Positions 3,316 through 45,658 of a DNA stretch of 64,000 nt are shown in pieces (position 1 is the stretch's first letter; every line of letters begins with the position of its first letter). Position numbers and translations under genes: made by a program. This DNA is from a virus: the UHGV virus genome UHGV-0038498. One strand, given 5' to 3'. The notes under the pieces are model-generated. The model was given only the letters and a program-made list of their open reading frames with translations. It was not told where the DNA came from and made no database searches.

Positions 3316-3645
3316 ATGAACAAGTTAGAAATTGTTAATGAACTTCGTCGTTGTGCAGAACCCACTCAAGAGGGGTGGGACATCTGGTACCATGGAGCTT
3401 ATCTTGGAACTATCGTAAAGATTAAGACTGGTAAATACATGATTATTCGTGAAAGTAAAGATGCTCCAGTAGGTATTCGCAATAATTTTATGGCGGCGAT
3501 AAGTTCCTTTACGGATTCAGCTTATGAAATTTACCTTGCTGATTATAAAGAATTCCAGGAATCTCAACCAGTTATTCGCTCAATTGGTGTTAACAAAGCT
3601 CAACAGAAAACTTTGTGGCAGCGTATTAAAGGATGGTTTAAATGA
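3316..3645 (+). CDS. hypothetical protein (motA.1-like position)
   Basis: 109-aa ORF with RBS, directly downstream of motA. Confidence 0.55.
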
Positions 3646-4103
3646 ACCCATTTATTAATCGTTTAAAAATGCTGAATGTTCCTTTATCTCGTGAAACTCC
3701 AGAAAGTCTTGTTGAAAAATTTAAAGCGCATGGTTATAAATGCACAGAAGAAGATATTCTGAAAGAAGTTCCTGAAATCTGTTGGCAGTCTGCATATTGG
3801 GACGAAAATCAAAAATATCAACGACGAATTGTTTGCGCAGCCAACCGTTTTAAATTAAAAGATGGACGAACTCTTGTTATTCCAGGTGCTCGTCATTATT
3901 CTAAAGATATGGCAGAAGTTTTAGATGTAGTTAAACCTCAATTAGTTACTCAACAAGTTTGTGATGATGACCAAGGGTTTATTGACCAATATAGTAATTA
4001 TTGGACCCGTGAAGAAGCAATGATTATTGCAACTTACGCTGGACAAGTACGTATTGAACGTGGTGGTAGTGAAAAAGAACTTTACTCTGAGGACCTTTAC
4101 TAA
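3642..4103 (+). CDS. hypothetical protein
   Basis: 153-aa ORF translationally coupled (ATGA overlap) to the upstream ORF. Confidence 0.55.
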
Positions 4104-4399
4104 TGAATATTAAAAAGTTTCAAATTGATGGAATTAAGAATCAAATCCAGGCACTGGAATATGCCAATAAAATGATGTCAACTAATTGGGGAATTTATGC
4201 CAATGAACCGGCATTTCAATTCTGTAATATGGAATTCACCAAAAAGCTCGTAGGAAAAGATTATGTATGTCCATTTAGTTCCCCAATAAATGGAATGCTA
4301 AAACCTGCTTTACGCGATCTTTATATTGCGATGAACGAAGAAATGATAAAAGAACTAAAACGTCAACTGAAGGTGATTCAATTTGGCCAGGGAAATTAA
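4103..4399 (+). CDS. hypothetical protein
   Basis: 98-aa ORF; start overlaps the upstream stop. Confidence 0.5.
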   Translation: MNIKKFQIDGIKNQIQALEYANKMMSTNWGIYANEPAFQFCNMEFTKKLVGKDYVCPFSSPINGMLKPALRDLYIAMNEEMIKELKRQLKVIQFGQGN

Positions 4400-4601
4400 T
4401 TCAAAATCCGATTATTTTAATTCTCTCAATGATAAAGATAAAAATCTAATACGGCATTTTATTGTTGAGATGGGATATACTGACACACGTGATTTAAGAG
4501 AACATATATTTGAATGTGGTGTAGCTAAAAAGTTTTCATTCACATGCAAATGTTTGAGAGAGGTAATTCAGCACTATGAACAATTTAGTCGCAAAACATA
4601 A
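4383..4601 (+). CDS. hypothetical protein
   Basis: 72-aa ORF overlapping the upstream ORF end. Confidence 0.4.
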   Translation: MAREINSKSDYFNSLNDKDKNLIRHFIVEMGYTDTRDLREHIFECGVAKKFSFTCKCLREVIQHYEQFSRKT

Positions 4602-4684
4602 TTTTAATAAAGCTTCTATCCATAAAGATAAGAAGAAAGCGTTTAAAGAATCTAATCGCAAACAGAAACATAAGGGGAAGGTCT

Positions 4685-4963
4685 ATGATTATTGATTCTC
4701 AGTCTGTGGTTCAATACACAATCAAAATTGATATTCTAGAAAAGCTATATAAGTTTCTACCAAATTTATACCACTCAATTGTTAATGAATTAGTTGAAGA
4801 ACTACATCTCGAGAATAATGATTTCTTGGTTGGAACTTATAAAGACCTCTCAAAAGCAGGATATTTTTACGTAATTCCAGCTCCAGGAAAAAGTATTGAT
4901 GATGTATTAAAAACTATAATGATTTATGTCCTTGATTATGAAATTGAAGATTATTTCGAATGA
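4685..4963 (+). CDS. arn: anti-restriction nuclease inhibitor Arn
   Basis: 92-aa ORF MIIDSQSVVQYTIKIDILEKLYKF... matching T4 Arn as recalled; upstream of asiA as in T4. Confidence 0.7.
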   Translation: MIIDSQSVVQYTIKIDILEKLYKFLPNLYHSIVNELVEELHLENNDFLVGTYKDLSKAGYFYVIPAPGKSIDDVLKTIMIYVLDYEIEDYFE

Positions 4964-5112
4964 GTCATAATCTTGAAAAAGTAATCGAGCATAATGTAGC
5001 TCAGGAACGTAAGTCGTTCAAGGAATTCGTAGAAAAAATTTTTGAAGAAAATACCACAGACCAGTTTACAAATCAAGCGTCTGATGATATTATAGTAAAG
5101 TCAACTAATTGA
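4960..5112 (+). CDS. small hypothetical protein (50 aa)
   Basis: ATGA overlap with arn stop; contains the asiA early promoter inside its coding sequence. Confidence 0.3.
   Translation: MSHNLEKVIEHNVAQERKSFKEFVEKIFEENTTDQFTNQASDDIIVKSTN
5064..5093 (+). promoter_or_regulatory. early promoter upstream of asiA
   Basis: GTTTAC at 5064-5069, 18-bp spacer, TATTAT at 5088-5093. Confidence 0.55.
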
Positions 5113-5124
5113 GTGGTATAGTTA

Positions 5125-5397
5125 ATGAATAAAAATATTGATACAGTTCGTGAAATTATTACTGTTGCGTCTATTTTAATTAAATTTTCCAGAGAAGATA
5201 TTGTTGAGAATCGTGCTAATTTTATTGCATTTCTGAATGAGATTGGAGTAACGCATGAAGGTAGAAAGTTGAATCAGAATTCATTCCGTAAAATTGTTTC
5301 TGAATTAACTCAAGAAGATAAGAAAACCCTCATCGACGAATTCAACGAGGGTTTTGAGGGTGTATATCGATATCTAGAGATGTATACGAACAAATAA
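5125..5397 (+). CDS. asiA: anti-sigma70 factor AsiA
   Basis: 90-aa ORF MNKNIDTVREIITVASILIKFSREDIVENRANFIAFL... matching T4 AsiA as recalled. Confidence 0.92.
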   Translation: MNKNIDTVREIITVASILIKFSREDIVENRANFIAFLNEIGVTHEGRKLNQNSFRKIVSELTQEDKKTLIDEFNEGFEGVYRYLEMYTNK

Positions 5398-6054
5398 TTA
5401 TTTAGCCCTTCCTAATATTCTGGCCGCCTGAGCACATATTGATTCAAGGCGGTCATTACTTATATGATCATTTCTATACCAGTACATGGTTATTGTTCCA
5501 GCATAGATATTATCCAAATTGAAATATGGACAACTGTACATGTAATTTATTTCGGGAGTAGGCTTTTTAGTCGGTAAAAAAGCAAATTTTGAGTTGGAAT
5601 AATAATGACGTCCATTTAAATGAACTGCATATTCATCCATAGTTTTATCAACAGGATATCCTCCAAGTGATTTTTCACTTATTGTTGAAGGTAATTTTCC
5701 TTCATATGCTATAATATCAACAAAATAGTTTAAGTTTTTAGGGCGGAAAGAATACACCGCACTAAAGTCTGCCTCAGATGATATATGAACTATCTGGAGT
5801 TGTTCCAGGGCGACAGATTCAAAGCGTGCATTTCTTTCCTTTTCAATAATTTCACTGTATGTTTCATACTTTGATTGCTTATAGTACTCAAAGAAACTAT
5901 CTCCCCTATACCAAACAATCGCCATTATAAACAAAAGAATTACGACAGCTACACGGGAAGCAAGAACTTTCCCGGTAGCGTTATCTTTGAACAAGCGATC
6001 TAGAACACCAAACAGAATATCAGAGGGCGAAAATGATATTCTAGGTGCTGCCAT
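5398..6054 (-). CDS. t: holin T (lysis timing, lysis-inhibition sensor)
   Basis: 218-aa ORF MAAPRISFSPSDILFGVLDRL... with one N-proximal transmembrane segment and large C-terminal domain; matches T4 T holin as recalled. Confidence 0.9.
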   Translation of the reverse strand: MAAPRISFSPSDILFGVLDRLFKDNATGKVLASRVAVVILLFIMAIVWYRGDSFFEYYKQSKYETYSEIIEKERNARFESVALEQLQIVHISSEADFSAVYSFRPKNLNYFVDIIAYEGKLPSTISEKSLGGYPVDKTMDEYAVHLNGRHYYSNSKFAFLPTKKPTPEINYMYSCPYFNLDNIYAGTITMYWYRNDHISNDRLESICAQAARILGRAK

Positions 6055-6085
6055 AGACCCTCCTTTTAAGGATATTTATTCAAAA

Positions 6086-37849: not shown

Positions 37850-38300
37850 ATTAGAGATTAGAAGCAATTTTAAATGGCCATCATGTGCATTAAGTAATTT
37901 CGCCCAATGGCCTTTCGTTATGGATGGCATTCAATTTGGAGGTCTCGAAGGATTCCTCCAAGGGTGTAAGGTGAAAAATGTTGAACAGCAAAGACGTATA
38001 TTTGGGTTATCCGGGCTTGCCGCCCAACAAGCTGGAAGGTCTTATGCTAGAGCTCAGGACCGTGGGACGTTGTTCTGGCTTGGAGTTCCGTTTTCAAGAT
38101 ACTCTCCGGCGTGGAAAGAATTATACACAAATGCATATTTTGAAGCAGCGTTCCAAAACAAAGGCTTTCGCGATGCATTACAAGCCTCGAAAGGAAAAGT
38201 TTTGAAGCACAGCATGGCTAGTGGTCTAACAAAAGATGATACAATACTAACCGAAGCTGAATTTATTGATGTGTTAAACCTATTAAGAGACTCTCTATGA
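37842..38300 (+). CDS. NADAR/YbiA-like protein (candidate ADP-ribose-processing hydrolase)
   Basis: 152-aa ORF; LSNFAQWPFVMDGIQFGGLEGFLQGCKV resembles the YbiA/NADAR core (FSNFAAWP...DG...EHYFQAQKF) as recalled. Confidence 0.5.
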   Translation: MSELEIRSNFKWPSCALSNFAQWPFVMDGIQFGGLEGFLQGCKVKNVEQQRRIFGLSGLAAQQAGRSYARAQDRGTLFWLGVPFSRYSPAWKELYTNAYFEAAFQNKGFRDALQASKGKVLKHSMASGLTKDDTILTEAEFIDVLNLLRDSL

Positions 38301-39160
38301 AGCCTACTATTTTAACTGATATTGATGGAGTATGTTTAAGCTGGCAATCAGGTCTTCCTTATTTTGCTCAGAAATATAATCTTCCGTTAGAACATATTTT
38401 AAAAATGATCCAAGATGAGAAATTTATTTCTCCAGGTAAACTCTTTAATTGTGATGAAGAACTCGGTGTCAAGCTAATTGAAAAATACAATCGATCAGAT
38501 TTTATTCGTTACTTGTCTCCATATAAAGATGCCCTGTGTGTAATTAACAAATTAAAAGAAGATTATAATTTTGTAGCTGTTACAGCATTGGGTGATTCTA
38601 TTGACGCTCTGCTGAATCGTCAATTTAATTTGAATGCTCTTTTTCCTGGTGCCTTCTCAGAAGTAATGATGTGTGGTCATGATTCTTCAAAAGAAGAGTT
38701 ATTCAAAAAGGCAAAAGAGAAATATAACGTAATTTGTTATATTGACGATCTTGCTCACCACTGCGATCATGCGAGTGAAATATTAAATGTTCCGGTTTAT
38801 TGGATGGCTCGAGGAGAGCGTGACAATATTCCAAAAACTGCGCAGCGAGTTTATACATGGAATGATGTAGAAAATAAGCTTTTTTCACCGAAGGAAAATA
38901 AAGAAAGTTTTGATAGTGAAAAAGCTATAAAAGATGTAATTGAGAAGATGGTTAAAAACGATTCTTTTCGTTGGAACACTACCTGGAGAACTCCTGGATT
39001 TAATCCGTATAATCCATATTATACACATCCATATAATCCATATTATACACACCCGTATCATATGAATCCATTCCATACGTGGAGTTATACTAAGCCTGGT
39101 GATGCAGGGTATTTTAATAGATTTACTAGTGGTGATAATATTTTCCAAGGAGCATTCTAA
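38297..39160 (+). CDS. HAD-superfamily hydrolase-like protein (possible nucleotidase) with P/Y-rich repeat tail
   Basis: 287-aa ORF beginning MKPTILTDIDGVCLSW (HAD motif I DxDGV); C-terminal PYNPYYTH tandem repeats. Confidence 0.5.
   Translation: MKPTILTDIDGVCLSWQSGLPYFAQKYNLPLEHILKMIQDEKFISPGKLFNCDEELGVKLIEKYNRSDFIRYLSPYKDALCVINKLKEDYNFVAVTALGDSIDALLNRQFNLNALFPGAFSEVMMCGHDSSKEELFKKAKEKYNVICYIDDLAHHCDHASEILNVPVYWMARGERDNIPKTAQRVYTWNDVENKLFSPKENKESFDSEKAIKDVIEKMVKNDSFRWNTTWRTPGFNPYNPYYTHPYNPYYTHPYHMNPFHTWSYTKPGDAGYFNRFTSGDNIFQGAF
39005..39076 (+). repeat. 24-bp tandem repeat (2 copies plus a degenerate third) inside the HAD-like ORF
   Basis: CCGTATAATCCATATTATACACAT / CCATATAATCCATATTATACACAC / CCGTATCATATGAATCCATTCCAT, encoding PYNPYYTH repeats. 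Confidence 0.7.
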
Positions 39161-39429
39161 TGTTTGTCGTTCACACTATTTATGAAAATGAAGGTAATAC
39201 TACACGCGATTACGGTCACGTGAATCAATTTTTTAGATGCAATCCAGAATTCCGAGCTCAAAAAGACGAACGAATTTTTAAAAAATGTGTAGAGCAAGGT
39301 TTCATTTATATCAAGCACTGGATGCAAGGAAATAAAGTTAGAACTACATATCATAGGTCTTTAACTGAGCTTAATGATGAATTGATTTATAATAGAGCTG
39401 TAAATCAAACTCTGAAGGATGAACAATGA
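39160..39429 (+). CDS. hypothetical protein (30.1-like position)
   Basis: 89-aa ORF; ATGA overlap with the DNA ligase start. Confidence 0.5.
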   Translation: MFVVHTIYENEGNTTRDYGHVNQFFRCNPEFRAQKDERIFKKCVEQGFIYIKHWMQGNKVRTTYHRSLTELNDELIYNRAVNQTLKDEQ

Positions 39430-40889
39430 TTCTTAAAATTCTGAATGAAATAGCATCTATTGGATCAACTAAGCAGAAGCAAGCAATTCTTGAAAAGAAT
39501 AAAGATAATGAATTGCTTAAACGAGTATATCGTCTGACTTATTCTCGTGGGTTACAGTATTATATCAAGAAATGGCCTAAGCCTGGTATTGCTACCCAGA
39601 GTTTTGGAATGCTGACTATTACCGATATGCTTGACTTCATTGAATTCACGTTAGCTACTCGGAAATTGACCGGAAATGCTGCAATTGAGGAATTGACTGG
39701 ATATATCACCGATGGTAAAAAGGATGATGTTGAAGTTTTGCGTCGAGTGATGATGCGAGACCTTGAATGCGGTGCTTCAGTATCTATTGCAAACAAAGTT
39801 TGGCCAGGTTTAATTCCCGAACAACCTCAAATGCTGGCAAGTTCTTATGATGAAAAAGGCATCAGTAAGAATATCAAATTTCCAGCTTTTGCACAGTTAA
39901 AAGCAGATGGAGCTCGGTGTTTTGCTGAAGTCCGAGGTGATGAATTAGATGATGTTCGTCTTTTATCACGAGCTGGTAATGAATATCTAGGATTAGATCT
40001 TCTTAAGGAAGAGTTAATCAAAATGACTGCTGAAGCCCGCCAGATTCATCCAGAAGGTGTGTTAATTGATGGCGAATTGGTATACCACGAGCAAGTTAAA
40101 AAGGAACCAGAAGGCCTAGATTTTCTTTTTGATGCTTATCCTGAAATTAGTAAAGCTAAAGAATTCGCCGAAGTAGCGGAATCTCGTACTGCTTCTAATG
40201 GAATCGCCAATAAATCCTTAAAAGGAACCATTTCCGAAAAAGAAGCTCAATGCATGAAGTTTCAGGTCTGGGATTATGTCCCGTTGGTAGAAATATACGG
40301 TCTTCCGGCGTTTCGTTTAAAATATGATGTACGTTTTTCTAAACTAGAACAAATGACATCAGGATATGATAAAGTAATTTTAATTGAAAACCAGGTAGTA
40401 AATAACCTAGATGAAGCTAAGGTAATTTATAAAAAGTATATTGACCAAGGTCTTGAAGGTATTATTCTCAAAAATATCGATGGATTATGGGAAAATGCTC
40501 GTTCAAAAAATCTCTATAAATTTAAAGAAGTAATTGATGTTGATTTAAAAATTGTAGGAATTTATCCTCACCGTAAAGACCCTACTAAAGCAGGTGGATT
40601 TATTCTTGAATCAGAGTGTGGAAAAATTAAAGTAAATGCTGGTTCAGGCTTAAAAGATAAAGCCGGTGTAAAATCACATGAACTTGACCGTACTCGCATT
40701 ATGGAAAACCAAAATTATTATATTGGAAAAATTCTAGAGTGCGAATGCAACGGTTGGCTAAAATCTGATGGCCGCACTGATTACGTTAAATTATTTCTTC
40801 CGATTGCGATTCGTTTACGTGAAGATAAAACTAAAGCTAATACATTCGAGGATGTATTTGGTGATTTTCATGAGGTAACTGGTCTATGA
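39426..40889 (+). CDS. 30: ATP-dependent DNA ligase gp30
   Basis: 487-aa ORF MILKILNEIASIGSTKQKQAILEKNKDNELLKRVYRL..., adenylation motif KADGARC; matches T4 gp30. Confidence 0.93.
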   Translation: MILKILNEIASIGSTKQKQAILEKNKDNELLKRVYRLTYSRGLQYYIKKWPKPGIATQSFGMLTITDMLDFIEFTLATRKLTGNAAIEELTGYITDGKKDDVEVLRRVMMRDLECGASVSIANKVWPGLIPEQPQMLASSYDEKGISKNIKFPAFAQLKADGARCFAEVRGDELDDVRLLSRAGNEYLGLDLLKEELIKMTAEARQIHPEGVLIDGELVYHEQVKKEPEGLDFLFDAYPEISKAKEFAEVAESRTASNGIANKSLKGTISEKEAQCMKFQVWDYVPLVEIYGLPAFRLKYDVRFSKLEQMTSGYDKVILIENQVVNNLDEAKVIYKKYIDQGLEGIILKNIDGLWENARSKNLYKFKEVIDVDLKIVGIYPHRKDPTKAGGFILESECGKIKVNAGSGLKDKAGVKSHELDRTRIMENQNYYIGKILECECNGWLKSDGRTDYVKLFLPIAIRLREDKTKANTFEDVFGDFHEVTGL

Positions 40890-41074
40890 AAGCTTACTTA
40901 GAAACAATTGTCGTTGCTCAAAAAGAAGGTGAAGATGTTTCTACTTCTGTATCACAAATTATGATTGAATTTATAGATGCATATGCTTATAATAAATTCA
41001 CAGAAACATTTGATGCCTATGAAAAAGGTCCAAAGTTTGAAATATATCGTACTCTCTTACCAATAGATTATTAA
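40886..41074 (+). CDS. hypothetical protein
   Basis: 62-aa ORF overlapping the ligase stop. Confidence 0.45.
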   Translation: MKAYLETIVVAQKEGEDVSTSVSQIMIEFIDAYAYNKFTETFDAYEKGPKFEIYRTLLPIDY

Positions 41075-41095
41075 AGGCCTTCGGGCCTTTAATTT
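41073..41095 (+). terminator. rho-independent terminator
   Basis: AAAGGCC-ttcg-GGCCTTT hairpin followed by AATTTT. Confidence 0.65.
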
Positions 41096-41103
41096 TATAA
41101 ATA
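41096..41103 (+). promoter_or_regulatory. late promoter (TATAAATA) for alt
   Basis: Exact TATAAATA 21 nt upstream of the alt ATG, right after the terminator. Confidence 0.65.
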
Positions 41104-41123
41104 GAATAAACACTAGAGAGGAT

Positions 41124-43220
41124 ATGATGGAACTCATTACAGAATTATTTGACGAAGATACTACTCTTCCGATTACAAACTTAAATCCAAAGAAGAAAAT
41201 ACCGCAAATTTTTTCAGTTCATGTTGATGACGCAATTGAACAACCAGGATTTCGTTTATGTACCTATACATCTGGAGGTGATACTAATCGCGATTTAAAG
41301 ATGGGCGATAAAATGATGCATATTGTTCCTTTTACATTAACTGCTAAAGGTTCAATTGCTAAATTAAAAGGTCTCGGTCCAAGCCCAATTAATTATATCA
41401 ATTCAGTTTTTACTGTTGCGATGCAGACGATGCGTCAGTATAAAATTGATGCATGTATGCTCCGTATTCTTAAGTCTAAAACTGCTGGTCAAGCTCGTCA
41501 AATTCAACTTATTGCTGATAGACTTATCCGTAGTCGCTCAGGTGGCAGATACGTCCTTCTTAAGGAACTCTGGGATTACGATAAAAAGTATGCATATATT
41601 CTTATACATCGCAAAAATGTATCATTAGAAGACATTCCAGGAGTTCCTGAAATTAGTACCGAGCTCTTTACTAAAGTTGAATCGAAGGTCGGTGATGTTT
41701 ATATCAATAAAGATACTGGAGCTCAAGTAACTAAAAATGAGGCAATTGCAGCATCTATTGCGCAAGAAAACGATAAACGTTCTGACCAAGCTGTAATCGT
41801 TAAAGTTAAAATTTCCCGTAGAGCAATTGCACAAAGTCAGTCATTGGAATCTTCTAGATTTGAAAGTGAATTATTCCAGAAGTATGAATCTACTGCAGCT
41901 AATTTCAATAAACCTGCTACCGCTCCTTTAATTCCCGAAGCGGAAGAAATGAAACTTGGAATTAATTCACTAGCTTCTAAAACTAAGGCAGCAAAAATCA
42001 TTGCCGAAGGAACTGCAGATGAACTTCACTATGATTATAAATTCTTTTCAAAAAGTGAGGTTAATGAAGTTTCTGAAAAAATTAAAGATGTAATTCTTAA
42101 TGCGATTAAAAATGAACCAACTACTTCAATAAAATGTTTAGAGAAATACGCAGCAGCTATTAATAAATTCTTTGAAGAATACAAAGATACTTGGCTTGAT
42201 AAACATAATAAAACCCGTAAAGGACAGCCAGATGAAGTTTGGGAAGAAATAACTAAAAATTCCTGGAACGCAGCAAAAACTAAATTCCTCAAACGAATGA
42301 TTTATAGCTTTTCTGGAATTGGTGCAGGTCCAATGATTGATATTACTATTGCCCGTGATGGTTCGAAATATACTCCATCACAAAAGCGCGGCATTAGAGA
42401 GTATTGTGGTTCAGGATATACTGACATCAATAATCTTCTTTTAGGACGCTACAATCCAGAACGATATGATGTAATGAGTGAAAAAGAAATTGAATCTGCT
42501 ATAAATAACTTAGATTCAGCTTTTGAAAATGGTGACCGTATACCGGAAGGCATTACAGTTTATCGTGCTCAAAGTATGACTGCTCCTATATACGAAGCAT
42601 TAGTTAAAAATAAAGTGTTCTATTTCAGAAATTTTGTATCTACTTCTTTAACTCCTATCATTTTTGGACGTTTTGGAATTACACATGCTGGTATTGGTCT
42701 TTTAGAACCAGAAGCTCGTAATGAATTAACAGTTGATAAAAATGAAGAAGGAATAACTATTAATCCAAACGAAATAAGAGCGTATAAAGAAAATCCTGAA
42801 TACGTTAAAGTTCAAATAGGATGGGCAATTGATGGAGCTCATAAAGTTAATGTTGTATATCCAGGAAGTCTCGGAATAGCAACCGAAGCTGAAGTTATTC
42901 TACCACGCGGATTGATGGTCAAAGTTAATAAAATAACTGATGCTTCTAATAATGACGGAACAACATCTAATAATACAAAACTCATTCAAGCTGAAGTTAT
43001 GACTACGGAAGAACTCACCGAATCAGTAATTTATGACGGTGACCGTCTAATGGAAACCGGCGAAGTAGTTGCAATGACAGGTGATATTGAAATAGAAGAC
43101 AGAGTTGACTTTGCATCATTTGTTTCATCAAATGTTAAACAAAAAGTAGAATCATCTCTTGGAATTATTGCGTCTTGCATAGATATTACAAACATGCCTT
43201 ACAAGTTCGTTCAAGGATAA
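41124..43220 (+). CDS. alt: ADP-ribosyltransferase Alt (head-packaged)
   Basis: 698-aa ORF; N-terminus MELITELFD..., PGFRLCTYTSGGDTN, R-S-E candidates TVYRAQ / FVSTSL / EAEVILPRG; late promoter upstream. Confidence 0.85.
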   Translation: MMELITELFDEDTTLPITNLNPKKKIPQIFSVHVDDAIEQPGFRLCTYTSGGDTNRDLKMGDKMMHIVPFTLTAKGSIAKLKGLGPSPINYINSVFTVAMQTMRQYKIDACMLRILKSKTAGQARQIQLIADRLIRSRSGGRYVLLKELWDYDKKYAYILIHRKNVSLEDIPGVPEISTELFTKVESKVGDVYINKDTGAQVTKNEAIAASIAQENDKRSDQAVIVKVKISRRAIAQSQSLESSRFESELFQKYESTAANFNKPATAPLIPEAEEMKLGINSLASKTKAAKIIAEGTADELHYDYKFFSKSEVNEVSEKIKDVILNAIKNEPTTSIKCLEKYAAAINKFFEEYKDTWLDKHNKTRKGQPDEVWEEITKNSWNAAKTKFLKRMIYSFSGIGAGPMIDITIARDGSKYTPSQKRGIREYCGSGYTDINNLLLGRYNPERYDVMSEKEIESAINNLDSAFENGDRIPEGITVYRAQSMTAPIYEALVKNKVFYFRNFVSTSLTPIIFGRFGITHAGIGLLEPEARNELTVDKNEEGITINPNEIRAYKENPEYVKVQIGWAIDGAHKVNVVYPGSLGIATEAEVILPRGLMVKVNKITDASNNDGTTSNNTKLIQAEVMTTEELTESVIYDGDRLMETGEVVAMTGDIEIEDRVDFASFVSSNVKQKVESSLGIIASCIDITNMPYKFVQG

Positions 43221-43223
43221 ATC

Positions 43224-45281
43224 ATGGAACTTATTACAGAATTATTTGACGGCGCTTCGGCGCCGGTTGTTAACTTAAATCCTAAGCATAAAATACCTCA
43301 AATTTTTGCTATTCAAGCCGGCGAAGAAAGTGTGCTTCCTGGATTTAGATTTTGTACATACACCTCTGGCGGTGATACAAATAAAAACGTTAAGCCAGGC
43401 GATAAAATGATGCATATCGTAATGATAGGTGTTAATGAGAAACTATCATTAGTTAAACTTAAAAACTTGGGTGGAAATCCAATTGGTGTCATTAATGCCG
43501 TTTTTGATACTGCTCTTCAAACAATGAAACAGTATAAAATTGACGCATGCTTATTCCGCGTACTAAAAAGTAAAACAAATGGCGCAGCTCGTCAAATGCA
43601 AGTTATTGCTGACCGTTTAGTACGTACTAAAGGAGCAGGTCGATATGTTCTTTTAAAGGAAATCTGGGATTATGATAAAAAGTATGCATATATTATGGTT
43701 TACCGTAAAAATGCCAATTTAGAAGACATTCCAGGTGTACCTCCTATTTCAACTGAGTTATTCACAAAAGTTGAATCAAAGGTTGGTGATGTGTATGTAG
43801 ATGTTAAAACAGGTAATGCTGTTCCTAAAGCTGTTGCTGTTGCTGCTTCTATTGCCTTAGAAAATGATAAGCGCACGGATCAAGCTGTTATTCAGAAAAC
43901 TAAAATTAGTCGTCGATTAGCAGCGCAAGCTCAATATTCTACTGTCGATGCTTCACTACAGAGTGATAGCTTCGCTGCCAAGAAATATCAAGAGTTTGAA
44001 TCTAAAGTTCCGGTACATAAAGCAGAAGGACCAATGAACTCTGGCGTTATTCAGATTGGTTCAAACTTCGGCAAAGGAGCTATCGGTGGTATGAGAAGTG
44101 CTTCTCGTTTTAAATCTAACGATTATGAACTAGAAAGCTTCCGAAATCATATTGCATTGGCCCATGCACGTTTACGTGATCCATCTATCAAGCTGCAGAG
44201 CGATATAACATATCAAGGTTCTCAAGAATATTTAAAGAATAAAGAATTTTTTGATTATAAAACCGATAAAATTTTGAGCGATCTCGCTGACATTAATATT
44301 TCTAATAGCTTTGATGTTATTAAGAAAATTATCAATGATTTAGTTAAAGGTTCTAAAGCTACGCCAGACGAAAAGGTAGCTATTATTCAATTTGTCATGA
44401 ATGGCATTTATAAATTGATTAATGAATCTGCTGCCCAGGCGTATGAATACGCAAGCACCGAAGTAACTCCAAAAGGACTGACTCAGGCTGAGTCTGATGT
44501 AATTGAAGATTATTGTGCAGATTCATATGTTGAAATGAACTCGTTCCTCTTGGGTAAACCAGATTCTACCCGTGAAGAATACATGGAACGAGCTATTAAA
44601 CACATCGAGACAATGGATTCTGCCTTTGCCAAAGGTTCAGTTCTTCCTCCAGGAACTACGCTTTATCGTGGACAAGAAGTTACTTTTAAAACTTTACGCC
44701 ATAATATTGAAAATAAAATGTTCTATTTCAAGAACTTCGTATCAACATCGCTTAAACCAAATATCTTCGGTGAGCATGGTAAAAACTATATGGCTCTAGA
44801 TGATTCCGGCGCAGTATTTTCTGGTGAAGGAGAAGGTTCTGTTGATGCTGAAGATTTAATGCATATGGGTAGTCATTCTGCTTATGCGAATGAAGATGCT
44901 GAAACTAGCGTAGGTATGGTAATTAAAGGGGCTGAGCGAATCAAAGTTATCGTTCCAGGTCATTTATCAGGATTTCCATCAGAAGCTGAAGTTATTCTAC
45001 CGCGTGGAATTTTGTTGAAGATTAATAAAGTAAGCACGTACATGATGAAAGAAACTGCTTATAACAAGTATCTAATCGAAGGCACAATCGTTCCTCCTTC
45101 TGAACAATTAGAAGAATCGGTATATGATGGCGATCATCTAATGGAAACTGGTGAAGTTCGTCCAATGGCTGGGTTTAATCAATTCCTTGTAGAAGAATCA
45201 AAAGAAGAGGAAAACGAAGTTTCTCAAATCTTGGCTTCTTTGGTTAACATCAACGGAATGTCTAAAAAGTTCAAGATGTAG
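43224..45281 (+). CDS. second Alt-family ADP-ribosyltransferase paralogue
   Basis: 685-aa ORF 3 nt downstream of alt; N-terminal ~230 aa collinear with alt, catalytic motifs TLYRGQ / FVSTSL / EAEVILPRG retained, central region divergent. Confidence 0.8.
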   Translation: MELITELFDGASAPVVNLNPKHKIPQIFAIQAGEESVLPGFRFCTYTSGGDTNKNVKPGDKMMHIVMIGVNEKLSLVKLKNLGGNPIGVINAVFDTALQTMKQYKIDACLFRVLKSKTNGAARQMQVIADRLVRTKGAGRYVLLKEIWDYDKKYAYIMVYRKNANLEDIPGVPPISTELFTKVESKVGDVYVDVKTGNAVPKAVAVAASIALENDKRTDQAVIQKTKISRRLAAQAQYSTVDASLQSDSFAAKKYQEFESKVPVHKAEGPMNSGVIQIGSNFGKGAIGGMRSASRFKSNDYELESFRNHIALAHARLRDPSIKLQSDITYQGSQEYLKNKEFFDYKTDKILSDLADINISNSFDVIKKIINDLVKGSKATPDEKVAIIQFVMNGIYKLINESAAQAYEYASTEVTPKGLTQAESDVIEDYCADSYVEMNSFLLGKPDSTREEYMERAIKHIETMDSAFAKGSVLPPGTTLYRGQEVTFKTLRHNIENKMFYFKNFVSTSLKPNIFGEHGKNYMALDDSGAVFSGEGEGSVDAEDLMHMGSHSAYANEDAETSVGMVIKGAERIKVIVPGHLSGFPSEAEVILPRGILLKINKVSTYMMKETAYNKYLIEGTIVPPSEQLEESVYDGDHLMETGEVRPMAGFNQFLVEESKEEENEVSQILASLVNINGMSKKFKM

Positions 45282-45310
45282 TTTACAAGTCCCTCGTGTT
45301 GTGTTATAGT
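45281..45310 (+). promoter_or_regulatory. early promoter in a promoter/stem-loop cassette (second copy)
   Basis: GTTTAC at 45281-45286 (G shared with the upstream TAG); 54-bp near-identical copy of 29719-29772. Confidence 0.5.
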
Positions 45311-45341: not shown

Positions 45342-45632
45342 ATGAAATCTTCTTTACGCTTTTTAGGTCAAGAACTTGTAGTTGAAGGCGTTATTCCTGC
45401 TGATAACGCTTTTAATGAAGCAGTTTATGATGAATTTATCAAAATTTTTGGAACAGATAAAAAGTTCGGAATTTTTCCTTCTGAAAATTTTTCAAAGCCA
45501 GAGCAGACTGAAAGCATTTTCCAAGGTGTAGTAACAGGTAAATTTGAGTCAGAAGCTCCGGTAAAAATTGAAGTTTACATTGAAGACAGTTTAGTTGCTT
45601 CAGTTGCTGCTTTTATTTCATTCCGTAAATAA
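45342..45632 (+). CDS. hypothetical protein
   Basis: 96-aa ORF between the promoter cassette and a bidirectional terminator. Confidence 0.5.
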   Translation: MKSSLRFLGQELVVEGVIPADNAFNEAVYDEFIKIFGTDKKFGIFPSENFSKPEQTESIFQGVVTGKFESEAPVKIEVYIEDSLVASVAAFISFRK

Positions 45633-45636
45633 AAAT

Positions 45637-45658
45637 ATGGGGACCTTTCGGTCCCCAT
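45637..45658. terminator. bidirectional terminator hairpin between convergent genes
   Basis: Palindrome ATGGGGACC-tttc-GGTCCCCAT between the + strand ORF end (45632) and gene 54 end (45661). Confidence 0.65.

Follow-up and report, generated by a model that had tools for sequence, protein, structure and literature searches.

The textbook picture of phage T4 has three ADP-ribosyltransferases, Alt, ModA and ModB. About 40 copies of T4 Alt are built into the prohead core (PMC5694885, PMC9026906), the prohead protease gp21 cuts the protein at ITE-6 and LTE-619, as mapped by mass spectrometry (PMC5694885), and the processed 68-kDa enzyme is ejected with the DNA (PMC5694885, PMC9026906). Published biochemistry on the NAD-dependent ADP-ribosylation of host proteins, RNA polymerase alpha among them, is confined to T4 Alt. 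Duplications of alt paralogues in T4-like phages have been described (Nolan et al. 2006, PMC1524935), and published virion mass spectrometry of a Klebsiella T4-like phage covers a single Alt homologue. Here we analyse the alt locus of UHGV virus genome UHGV-0038498, a stretch of 64,000 nucleotides (the window, below) that is a segment of a T4-type (Tequatrovirus) phage genome and carries two intact alt-family open reading frames (ORFs) in tandem, alt (copy 1) and alt2 (copy 2). We consider it probable, taking both statements together, that the pair arose long ago by tandem duplication of Alt, a head-packaged ADP-ribosyltransferase specific for arginine, and that both proteins would be made late, packaged, trimmed and injected so as to ADP-ribosylate different host targets.

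The two genes are laid out as follows:

41127-43220, plus strand: alt (copy 1, T2-type allele), 697 amino acids (aa)
43224-45281, plus strand: alt2 (copy 2), 685 aa

For copy 1, an in-frame ATG at 41124 gives a 698-aa ORF (41124-43220), and the annotation of related records begins at the second ATG, 41127, which we favour as the start because a GAGAGG Shine-Dalgarno sequence at 41116-41121 is better spaced from it. The spacer between the genes is the trinucleotide ATC (43221-43223), in keeping with a preliminary description of this DNA that had reported adjacent ORFs of 698 and 685 aa, 3 nucleotides apart. Copy 2 goes by 'alt.-2' in RB32, RB51 and ime09 and by 'Alt2' in Bas37.

That description had also implied that the pair is novel, giving T4 as a phage with a single alt gene. 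T4 does have only one intact alt; T2, T6, ime09, RB32, RB51 and Bas37 carry the same pair, a recurrence in reference genomes that the description itself had said beforehand would make the arrangement conserved rather than new. Megablast with the whole 4.4-kb region found 279 phage records covering at least 80% of it, out of 542 with any match; the records listed are 97.5-98.4% identical to the region, and most are annotated 'Alt-like RNA polymerase ADP-ribosyltransferase (x2)', 'alt_1/alt_2' or 'alt + alt.-2'. With the neighbouring ligase gene (499 records) as denominator, 402 of ~499 Tequatrovirus records, T2, T6, RB32 and RB51 among them, contain the whole catalytic half of copy 2 at a nucleotide identity of at least 90%. 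T2 and T6 encode the same 697-aa and 685-aa proteins, and the T6 record remarks on an 'apparent insertion in alt.-2; also similar to alt'. In Bas37 (Escherichia phage KarlGJung, BASEL), bas37_0033 is named 'ADP-ribosyltransferase Alt' and bas37_0032 'ADP-ribosyltransferase Alt2', and the window proteins are 99.1% (copy 1) and 99.6% (copy 2) identical to them. The pair is the ordinary alt/alt2 locus of about 80% of sequenced Tequatrovirus genomes and was already known; being annotated in hundreds of genomes, with the duplication in the literature since 2003-2006, it carries little weight as a discovery. Literature searches on the second paralogue ('alt.-2', 'Alt2', 'Alt-like') found no functional study.

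Copy 1 and copy 2 are 42% identical over their full length (BLASTP E 2e-158), an average that an identity profile in 30-residue windows resolves into sharply different blocks. Residues 1-238 are 53-83% identical and residues ~240-460 only 10-30%, the latter being essentially unalignable; beyond these, identity recovers to 40-57% in islands around the Arg, S-T-S and E-x-E motifs, and the stretch between S-T-S and E-x-E drops to 7-27%. This pairwise alignment bears out the collinear N-terminal ~230 aa and the unalignable central part that had been noted by eye. Paralogy is also seen in islands of direct repeat spaced about 2.1 kb from one another. A recent gene conversion from one copy to the other was considered and ruled out, the shared N-domain being only 59-78% identical in nucleotides.

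By profile matching, both genes encode full-length Alt-family ADP-ribosyltransferases, the assignment first proposed for them. PF03496 (ADP-ribosyltransferase exoenzyme) matches copy 1 with E 1.7e-37 and copy 2 with E 2.9e-20 in Pfam, and phrog_802 ('Alt-like RNA polymerase ADP-ribosyltransferase') matches them from end to end (copy 1, residues 1-696, E 4.7e-272; copy 2, residues 1-685, E 1.7e-255); NCBIfam yielded no matches for either protein. Homologues in a large protein collection carry precomputed PF26846 (Tevenvirinae_ADPRT, an N-terminal domain) together with PF03496, the former being known here only from this precomputed annotation, as it is absent from the Pfam copy searched. The candidate catalytic residues map as follows:

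42564-42893, plus strand: copy 1 catalytic core, with R480 (42564-42566), S505-T-S507 (42639-42647) and E587-A-E589 (42885-42893)
44667-44990, plus strand: copy 2 catalytic core, with R482 (44667-44669), S507-T-S509 (44742-44750) and E587-A-E589 (44982-44990)

All the motifs quoted in the preliminary description, which had both copies keeping candidate R-S-E residues, were found: YRAQ (R480), STS at 505-507 and EAEVILPRG at 587-595 in copy 1, and YRGQ (R482), STS at 507-509 and EAEVILPRG at 587-595 in copy 2. Loss of the catalytic Arg or Glu from one copy, which the description had named as an argument against two active enzymes, was looked for by alignment, and neither copy has lost its catalytic residues. 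Copy 1, copy 2 and T4 Alt agree in the Arg, in the S-T-S and in the two Glu of E-x-E; across 25 family members the Arg, both Ser of S-T-S and both Glu never change, and two members differ in the middle residue of S-T-S. The loop preceding E-x-E is different in each of the three proteins: GIATEAE (copy 1), GFPSEAE (copy 2) and APSNEME (T4). From the E-x-E, which implies an arginine acceptor, both copies are predicted to be arginine-specific.

A phmmer search of Alt2 against PDB sequences returned nothing at E 0.01 or better, and weak matches to CDTa and Iota were reached only by a three-sequence profile and by copy 1; in the three-protein profile, the Arg and E-x-E align with the catalytic residues of the Clostridioides difficile toxin CDTa. 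The AlphaFold2 model, made for copy 2 only, has a mean predicted local distance difference test score (pLDDT) of 75, rising to 80-93 in blocks across residues ~250-510, which take in the helical region and the beginning of the ADP-ribosyltransferase (ART) domain. Foldseek with the modelled ART domain retrieved Vis, C3bot, CDTa, VIP2 and Iota (E 1e-7 to 1e-5, probability 1.00), so that the Alt2 catalytic domain, as modelled, has the ART fold. The N-domain gave weak fold matches to large multi-domain phage proteins, which are only suggestive.

Candidate gp21 sites lie at aligned positions near both termini of both copies:

41136-41144, plus strand: copy 1 N-terminal gp21 site I4-T5-E6, motif identical to T4 Alt ITE-6
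43014-43022, plus strand: copy 1 C-terminal gp21 site L630-T-E632, same LTE motif as T4 Alt LTE-619
43233-43241, plus strand: copy 2 N-terminal gp21 site I4-T5-E6, by motif
45108-45116, plus strand: copy 2 C-terminal gp21-type site L629-E-E631, aligned to T4 LTE-619

Both proteins start with MELITELFD. Their C-terminal sites are followed by putative acidic propeptides of 65 aa (copy 1, after L630-T-E632) and 54 aa (copy 2, after L629-E-E631), and in the Alt2 model residues 1-10 and 629-685 are the only long stretches of low confidence (pLDDT below 50). Cleavage at these sites would give mature masses of 70.2 kDa for Alt and 69.1 kDa for Alt2; the N-domains are basic (isoelectric point ~9.6) and the tails predicted to be removed are acidic. 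One might suppose instead that Alt2 is no packaged effector, and that it acts late in the producing cell or serves, independently of catalysis, as a structural or scaffolding component of the head core. Within the family it is indeed the non-catalytic N-domain that is conserved best, and the presence of Alt2 in the virion is deduced from motifs. Such a role would sit poorly with the MELITELFD and ITE-6 that Alt2 shares exactly with Alt, with a conserved LxE at the point where T4 Alt is cut and with the invariance of the catalytic residues, and we regard it as quite improbable.

The signals around the pair that bear on its expression are these:

39426-40889: gene 30 DNA ligase
40886-41074: alt.1
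41073-41090, plus strand: GC-rich hairpin AAAGGCC-TTCG-GGCCTTT, read from the sequence, directly after the alt.1 stop codon
41096-41103, plus strand: T4-type late promoter octamer TATAAATA, an exact match upstream of alt
43213-43217, plus strand: alt2 ribosome-binding site AAGGA, read from the sequence, overlapping the last codons of alt
45342-45632: alt.-3

The gene order is thus gene 30, alt.1, alt, alt2 and alt.-3, followed by genes 54, 48 and 29 on the opposite strand, and the pair, preceded by a predicted late promoter, has gene 30/alt.1 on one side and alt.-3/gene 54 on the other. The hairpin at 41073-41090 appears terminator-like and would set the ligase/alt.1 unit apart from the alt genes; it was missed by our terminator scan because its T-run is interrupted, and it is identical in T4, T2, T6, ime09 and Bas37. 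The exact octamer that had been reported at 41096-41103 was confirmed, 23 nucleotides 5' of the ATG at 41127 and at a position common to T4, T2, T6, ime09 and Bas37; in the light of T4 late promoters, we take it to act as one. Co-transcription of alt2, as first proposed, holds in so far as nothing separates the two genes and the first has the late octamer, read-through itself being what these features suggest. The terminator scan found no terminator-like site between alt and alt2 (of its 4 sites, against 2.7 expected, two are weak and lie within the genes on the opposite strand, and the others belong to the hairpin after alt.-3), and the sigma-70 promoter scan showed no excess of sites (17 versus 17.6 in shuffled sequence). 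The junction, AAGGA plus the 3-nucleotide spacer, is identical in five phages. A second exact TATAAATA lies inside alt at 42500-42507 on the plus strand, within the codons for S-A-I-N-N, and is kept in ime09, T2, T6 and Bas37. It could merely reflect coding constraint; were it active, this conserved element at 42500 could uncouple alt2 expression from that of alt, as a non-packaged Alt2 might have it.

T4, in which the preliminary description had its single alt, owes this state to loss. T4 Alt (gpAlt, NP_049811; 682 aa) is 70% identical to copy 1 and 42% to copy 2, which by sequence makes it an orthologue of copy 1 and not of copy 2. What the T4 record calls 'an old duplication of the first part of gene alt', namely alt.-1/alt.-2, immediately 3' of T4 alt, aligns to the first 348 nucleotides of alt2 and then to its last few codons, the switch from one to the other falling within a 9-bp repeat; a 1-nucleotide deletion in an A-run, within the string that starts at window position 43371, causes a frameshift that leaves two small ORFs. 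Of the two window copies, it is by a wide margin copy 2 that gives the better match to the PHROGs of Alt.-1 and Alt.-2. The lost segment can be placed on the window:

43563-45270, plus strand: segment lost in T4, with 9-bp CTAAAAAGT repeats at 43563-43571 and 45262-45270 flanking a 1,699-bp deletion

Of the records, 91 (T4 isolates, RB55, RB59, SG1 and others) contain the T4-type deletion junction as contiguous sequence, and together with the 402 having intact alt2 they account for about 493 of ~499. Because the 91 remnants share one junction, a single deletion event is indicated, and on these sequence grounds T4 is a derived minority state and not an ancestral single-copy one. That T4 and 90 further records retain only a frameshifted, truncated remnant might be taken to mean that copy 2 is a decaying duplicate heading for loss everywhere. 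The single junction speaks for one event as opposed to recurrent decay, the catalytic half is fully covered at the stated identity in all 402 records, the alt2 ORF is intact in every genome inspected and its ratio of non-synonymous to synonymous substitution rates (dN/dS) is low (0.045-0.070), so that decay is effectively refuted.

The alt gene itself exists in more than one form. A comparison of copy 1 with T4 Alt gives 97-100% identity in residues 1-245 and 10-40% in ~270-400; identity recovers to 60-73% in the ART core (~400-520), falls again to about 23% in ~525-555 and returns to about 97% in the last ~40 residues. The allele difference from T4 alt was compared over window positions 41860-42900: the window allele, which is that of T2 (X69893), was found in 340 records and the T4-type allele in 175. 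Since 175 exceeds the 91 records with the T4 junction, the T4-type alt must also co-occur with intact alt2, as it does in SHFML-26. By these profiles the T2-type and T4-type alleles are mosaic, in a pattern that looks like cassette-style allelic replacement.

In ECML-134, Yersinia phage PST and several metagenome contigs, the pair between alt.1 and alt.-3 is replaced by one hybrid gene of 684-686 aa, which joins a copy-1-type N-terminus to an Alt2 body (vB_EcoM_SCS4 gave the same megablast match, and there the hybrid is probable only):

3501-5561: hybrid alt gene, ECML-134 (L008)
3501-5561: hybrid alt gene, Yersinia phage PST (L009)
4001-6061: hybrid alt gene, metagenome contigs L006 and L007

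The breakpoints fall at residues 99-103 in PST and at 148-159 in ECML-134; those of the metagenome proteins (P0003-P0007) lie elsewhere, either earlier or later. The hybrids look like the products of at least four independent unequal crossovers in the shared N-domain, each deleting the copy-1 body. Assembly artefacts were ruled out as their source, two isolate genomes having the same architecture. Such viable natural combinations of an Alt N-terminus with an Alt2 body, at four or more joining points, argue that the N-modules are interchangeable, and this again speaks against an Alt2 that is not packaged.

Pairwise Nei-Gojobori estimates among the window, ime09, T2 and T6 (23-80 synonymous and 4-15 non-synonymous differences) gave dN/dS of 0.015-0.048 for alt, alongside the range given above for alt2. 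Both copies are under strong purifying selection, including in the regions that differ between them. T4 Alt helps T4 to evade Mokosh type I, a function in which Bas37 Alt cannot substitute (HIDEN-SEQ preprint, 10.1101/2025.11.20.689424), a result that bears on the copy 1 allele because the two are 99% identical. In the same screen on E. coli K-12, Bas37 Alt2 was classed as 'Intermediate' (116/164 sites hit, mean count 44.5) and Bas37 Alt as 'Non-essential' (164/179 sites hit, mean count 203.6) (HIDEN-SEQ supplement, 10.1101/2025.11.20.689424), so disruption of Alt2 in Bas37 may carry a greater fitness cost than disruption of Alt.

These data allow a route to be sketched. Both genes would be transcribed late from TATAAATA at 41096, alt2 being translated through its own AAGGA on the same mRNA. 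The shared MELITE peptide, and perhaps the basic ~240-aa N-domain too, would target both proteins to the prohead core, after which gp21 would trim six N-terminal residues (at ITE-6) and the acidic tail (at LTE-632 in Alt, LEE-631 in Alt2), leaving enzymes of about 70 and 69 kDa. Ejected with the DNA, these would ADP-ribosylate host proteins on arginine as soon as infection begins, with RNA polymerase, translation factors and toxin or defence proteins such as MazF or Mokosh-related ones as candidate targets, and Alt and Alt2 would form a small injected arsenal, each member being dispensable. Different targets for the two seem most likely because three parts of the protein (the helical region at ~240-460, the segment that follows S-T-S and the loop leading into E-x-E) have diverged extremely between the copies yet are conserved among the orthologues of each; we infer the same from the Alt alleles not being interchangeable against Mokosh and from the different fitness classes of Alt and Alt2 in Bas37.

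A redundant Alt2, a back-up or dosage copy with the same targets as Alt (for instance RNA polymerase alpha Arg265) whose divergence is neutral drift, would account for the same arginine-specific E-x-E and flanking VILPRG in both copies, for T4-type phages managing without Alt2 and hybrid-only phages without the Alt body, and for the promiscuity of T4 Alt, which acts on RNA polymerase and MazEF (10.1101/2025.11.20.689424). Neutral drift is hard to reconcile with the tight conservation among orthologues (dN/dS ~0.05; 402 records at or above 90% nucleotide identity) of the very regions in which the paralogues are 10-30% identical. Moreover, T4 and Bas37 Alt, closer relatives than Alt and Alt2, already cannot replace each other against Mokosh, and Alt and Alt2 fall into different fitness classes; we therefore find redundancy unlikely, though better placed than a non-packaged Alt2.

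Several points weigh against two injected enzymes with separate targets. For Alt2, our literature searches turned up neither virion proteomics nor a transcript map nor an enzyme assay, so its expression, packaging, processing and activity are deduced from motifs, just as the different substrates are deduced from divergence between the sequences. The octamer TATAAATA is not statistically enriched across the whole window (13 found versus 8.9 expected), and its significance therefore lies in its position; the internal copy at 42500-42507 could give alt2 a separate transcript. T4 and the 90 other records are without Alt2, and a few isolates have only the Alt::Alt2 hybrid; because such phages exist, neither enzyme is essential and redundancy is possible. 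On balance we still favour late production, packaging and distinct targets for both proteins, the last two of which the preliminary description had raised as possibilities. We advance more tentatively, as a proposal somewhat short of even chances, the wider view that Alt2 is a second packaged, gp21-processed and injected arginine ADP-ribosyltransferase with targets of its own, possibly in counter-defence, and that the alt locus is a modular cargo system in which a conserved N-terminal delivery domain, recombining freely as in the T2-type/T4-type mosaics and the Alt::Alt2 hybrids, would swap, add or drop catalytic cassettes.

Some features of the neighbouring genes were also seen. The gene alt.-3 has its own early-type promoter (GTTTACA - 17 nucleotides - TATAGT, with TG) at 45282-45310, right after the alt2 stop codon, and for this reason we place it outside the late alt unit. 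C-terminal extensions of T4 Alt.-3 lead to escape from the CmdTAC defence system (PMC11618068). Between the convergent alt.-3 and 54 lies a strong hairpin at 45637-45658 (ATGGGGACC TTTC GGTCCCCAT) with a 9-bp stem, scored as terminator-like on both strands. On the other side of the pair, the gene 30.2 homologue (38297-39160) has a short tandem peptide repeat, NPYNPYYTHPYNPYYTHPYHMNPF, at its C-terminus, and its ORF has 287 aa compared with an 837-bp coding sequence (about 278 aa) in T4.

Set against the described systems, the window differs in nothing of substance from the group formed by Bas37, T2, T6, RB32, RB51 and ime09, which share with it the order 30 - alt.1 - alt - alt2 - alt.-3 - 54, the 697-aa and 685-aa proteins and the 3-nucleotide junction, and it is best seen as a further member. 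T4 agrees with copy 1 in locus, promoter, catalytic motifs and both gp21 sites, and differs in having lost alt2 save for a 348-nucleotide frameshifted stub where the window has an intact gene. T4, the basis of nearly all Alt biology, is thereby atypical twice, in being without Alt2 and in having an alt allele unlike the commoner T2-type one; if the proposal for Alt2 is true, the three-enzyme picture misses an effector injected by about 80% of T-even phages, T4 having deleted its gene. Tandem Alt paralogues also occur in other Straboviridae genera, as altA/altB of JS98 and JS10 and as the alt duplicates of 44RR, RB49 and Aeromonas phages (Nolan et al. 2006); these are independent or ancient and much more diverged, JS98 AltB being 48% identical to copy 2. 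More distantly, the C3-like and binary-toxin R-S-E ADP-ribosyltransferases (Vis, C3bot, CDTa, Iota Ia and VIP2) have in common with the pair the ART fold and the R / S-T-S / E-x-E architecture. The N-terminal pseudo-ART adaptor with which binary-toxin A components dock to a pore-forming B component was not seen, and neither protein has a Pfam match to the MuF (Phage_Mu_F) head domain of MuF-fused packaged effectors and polyvalent proteins.

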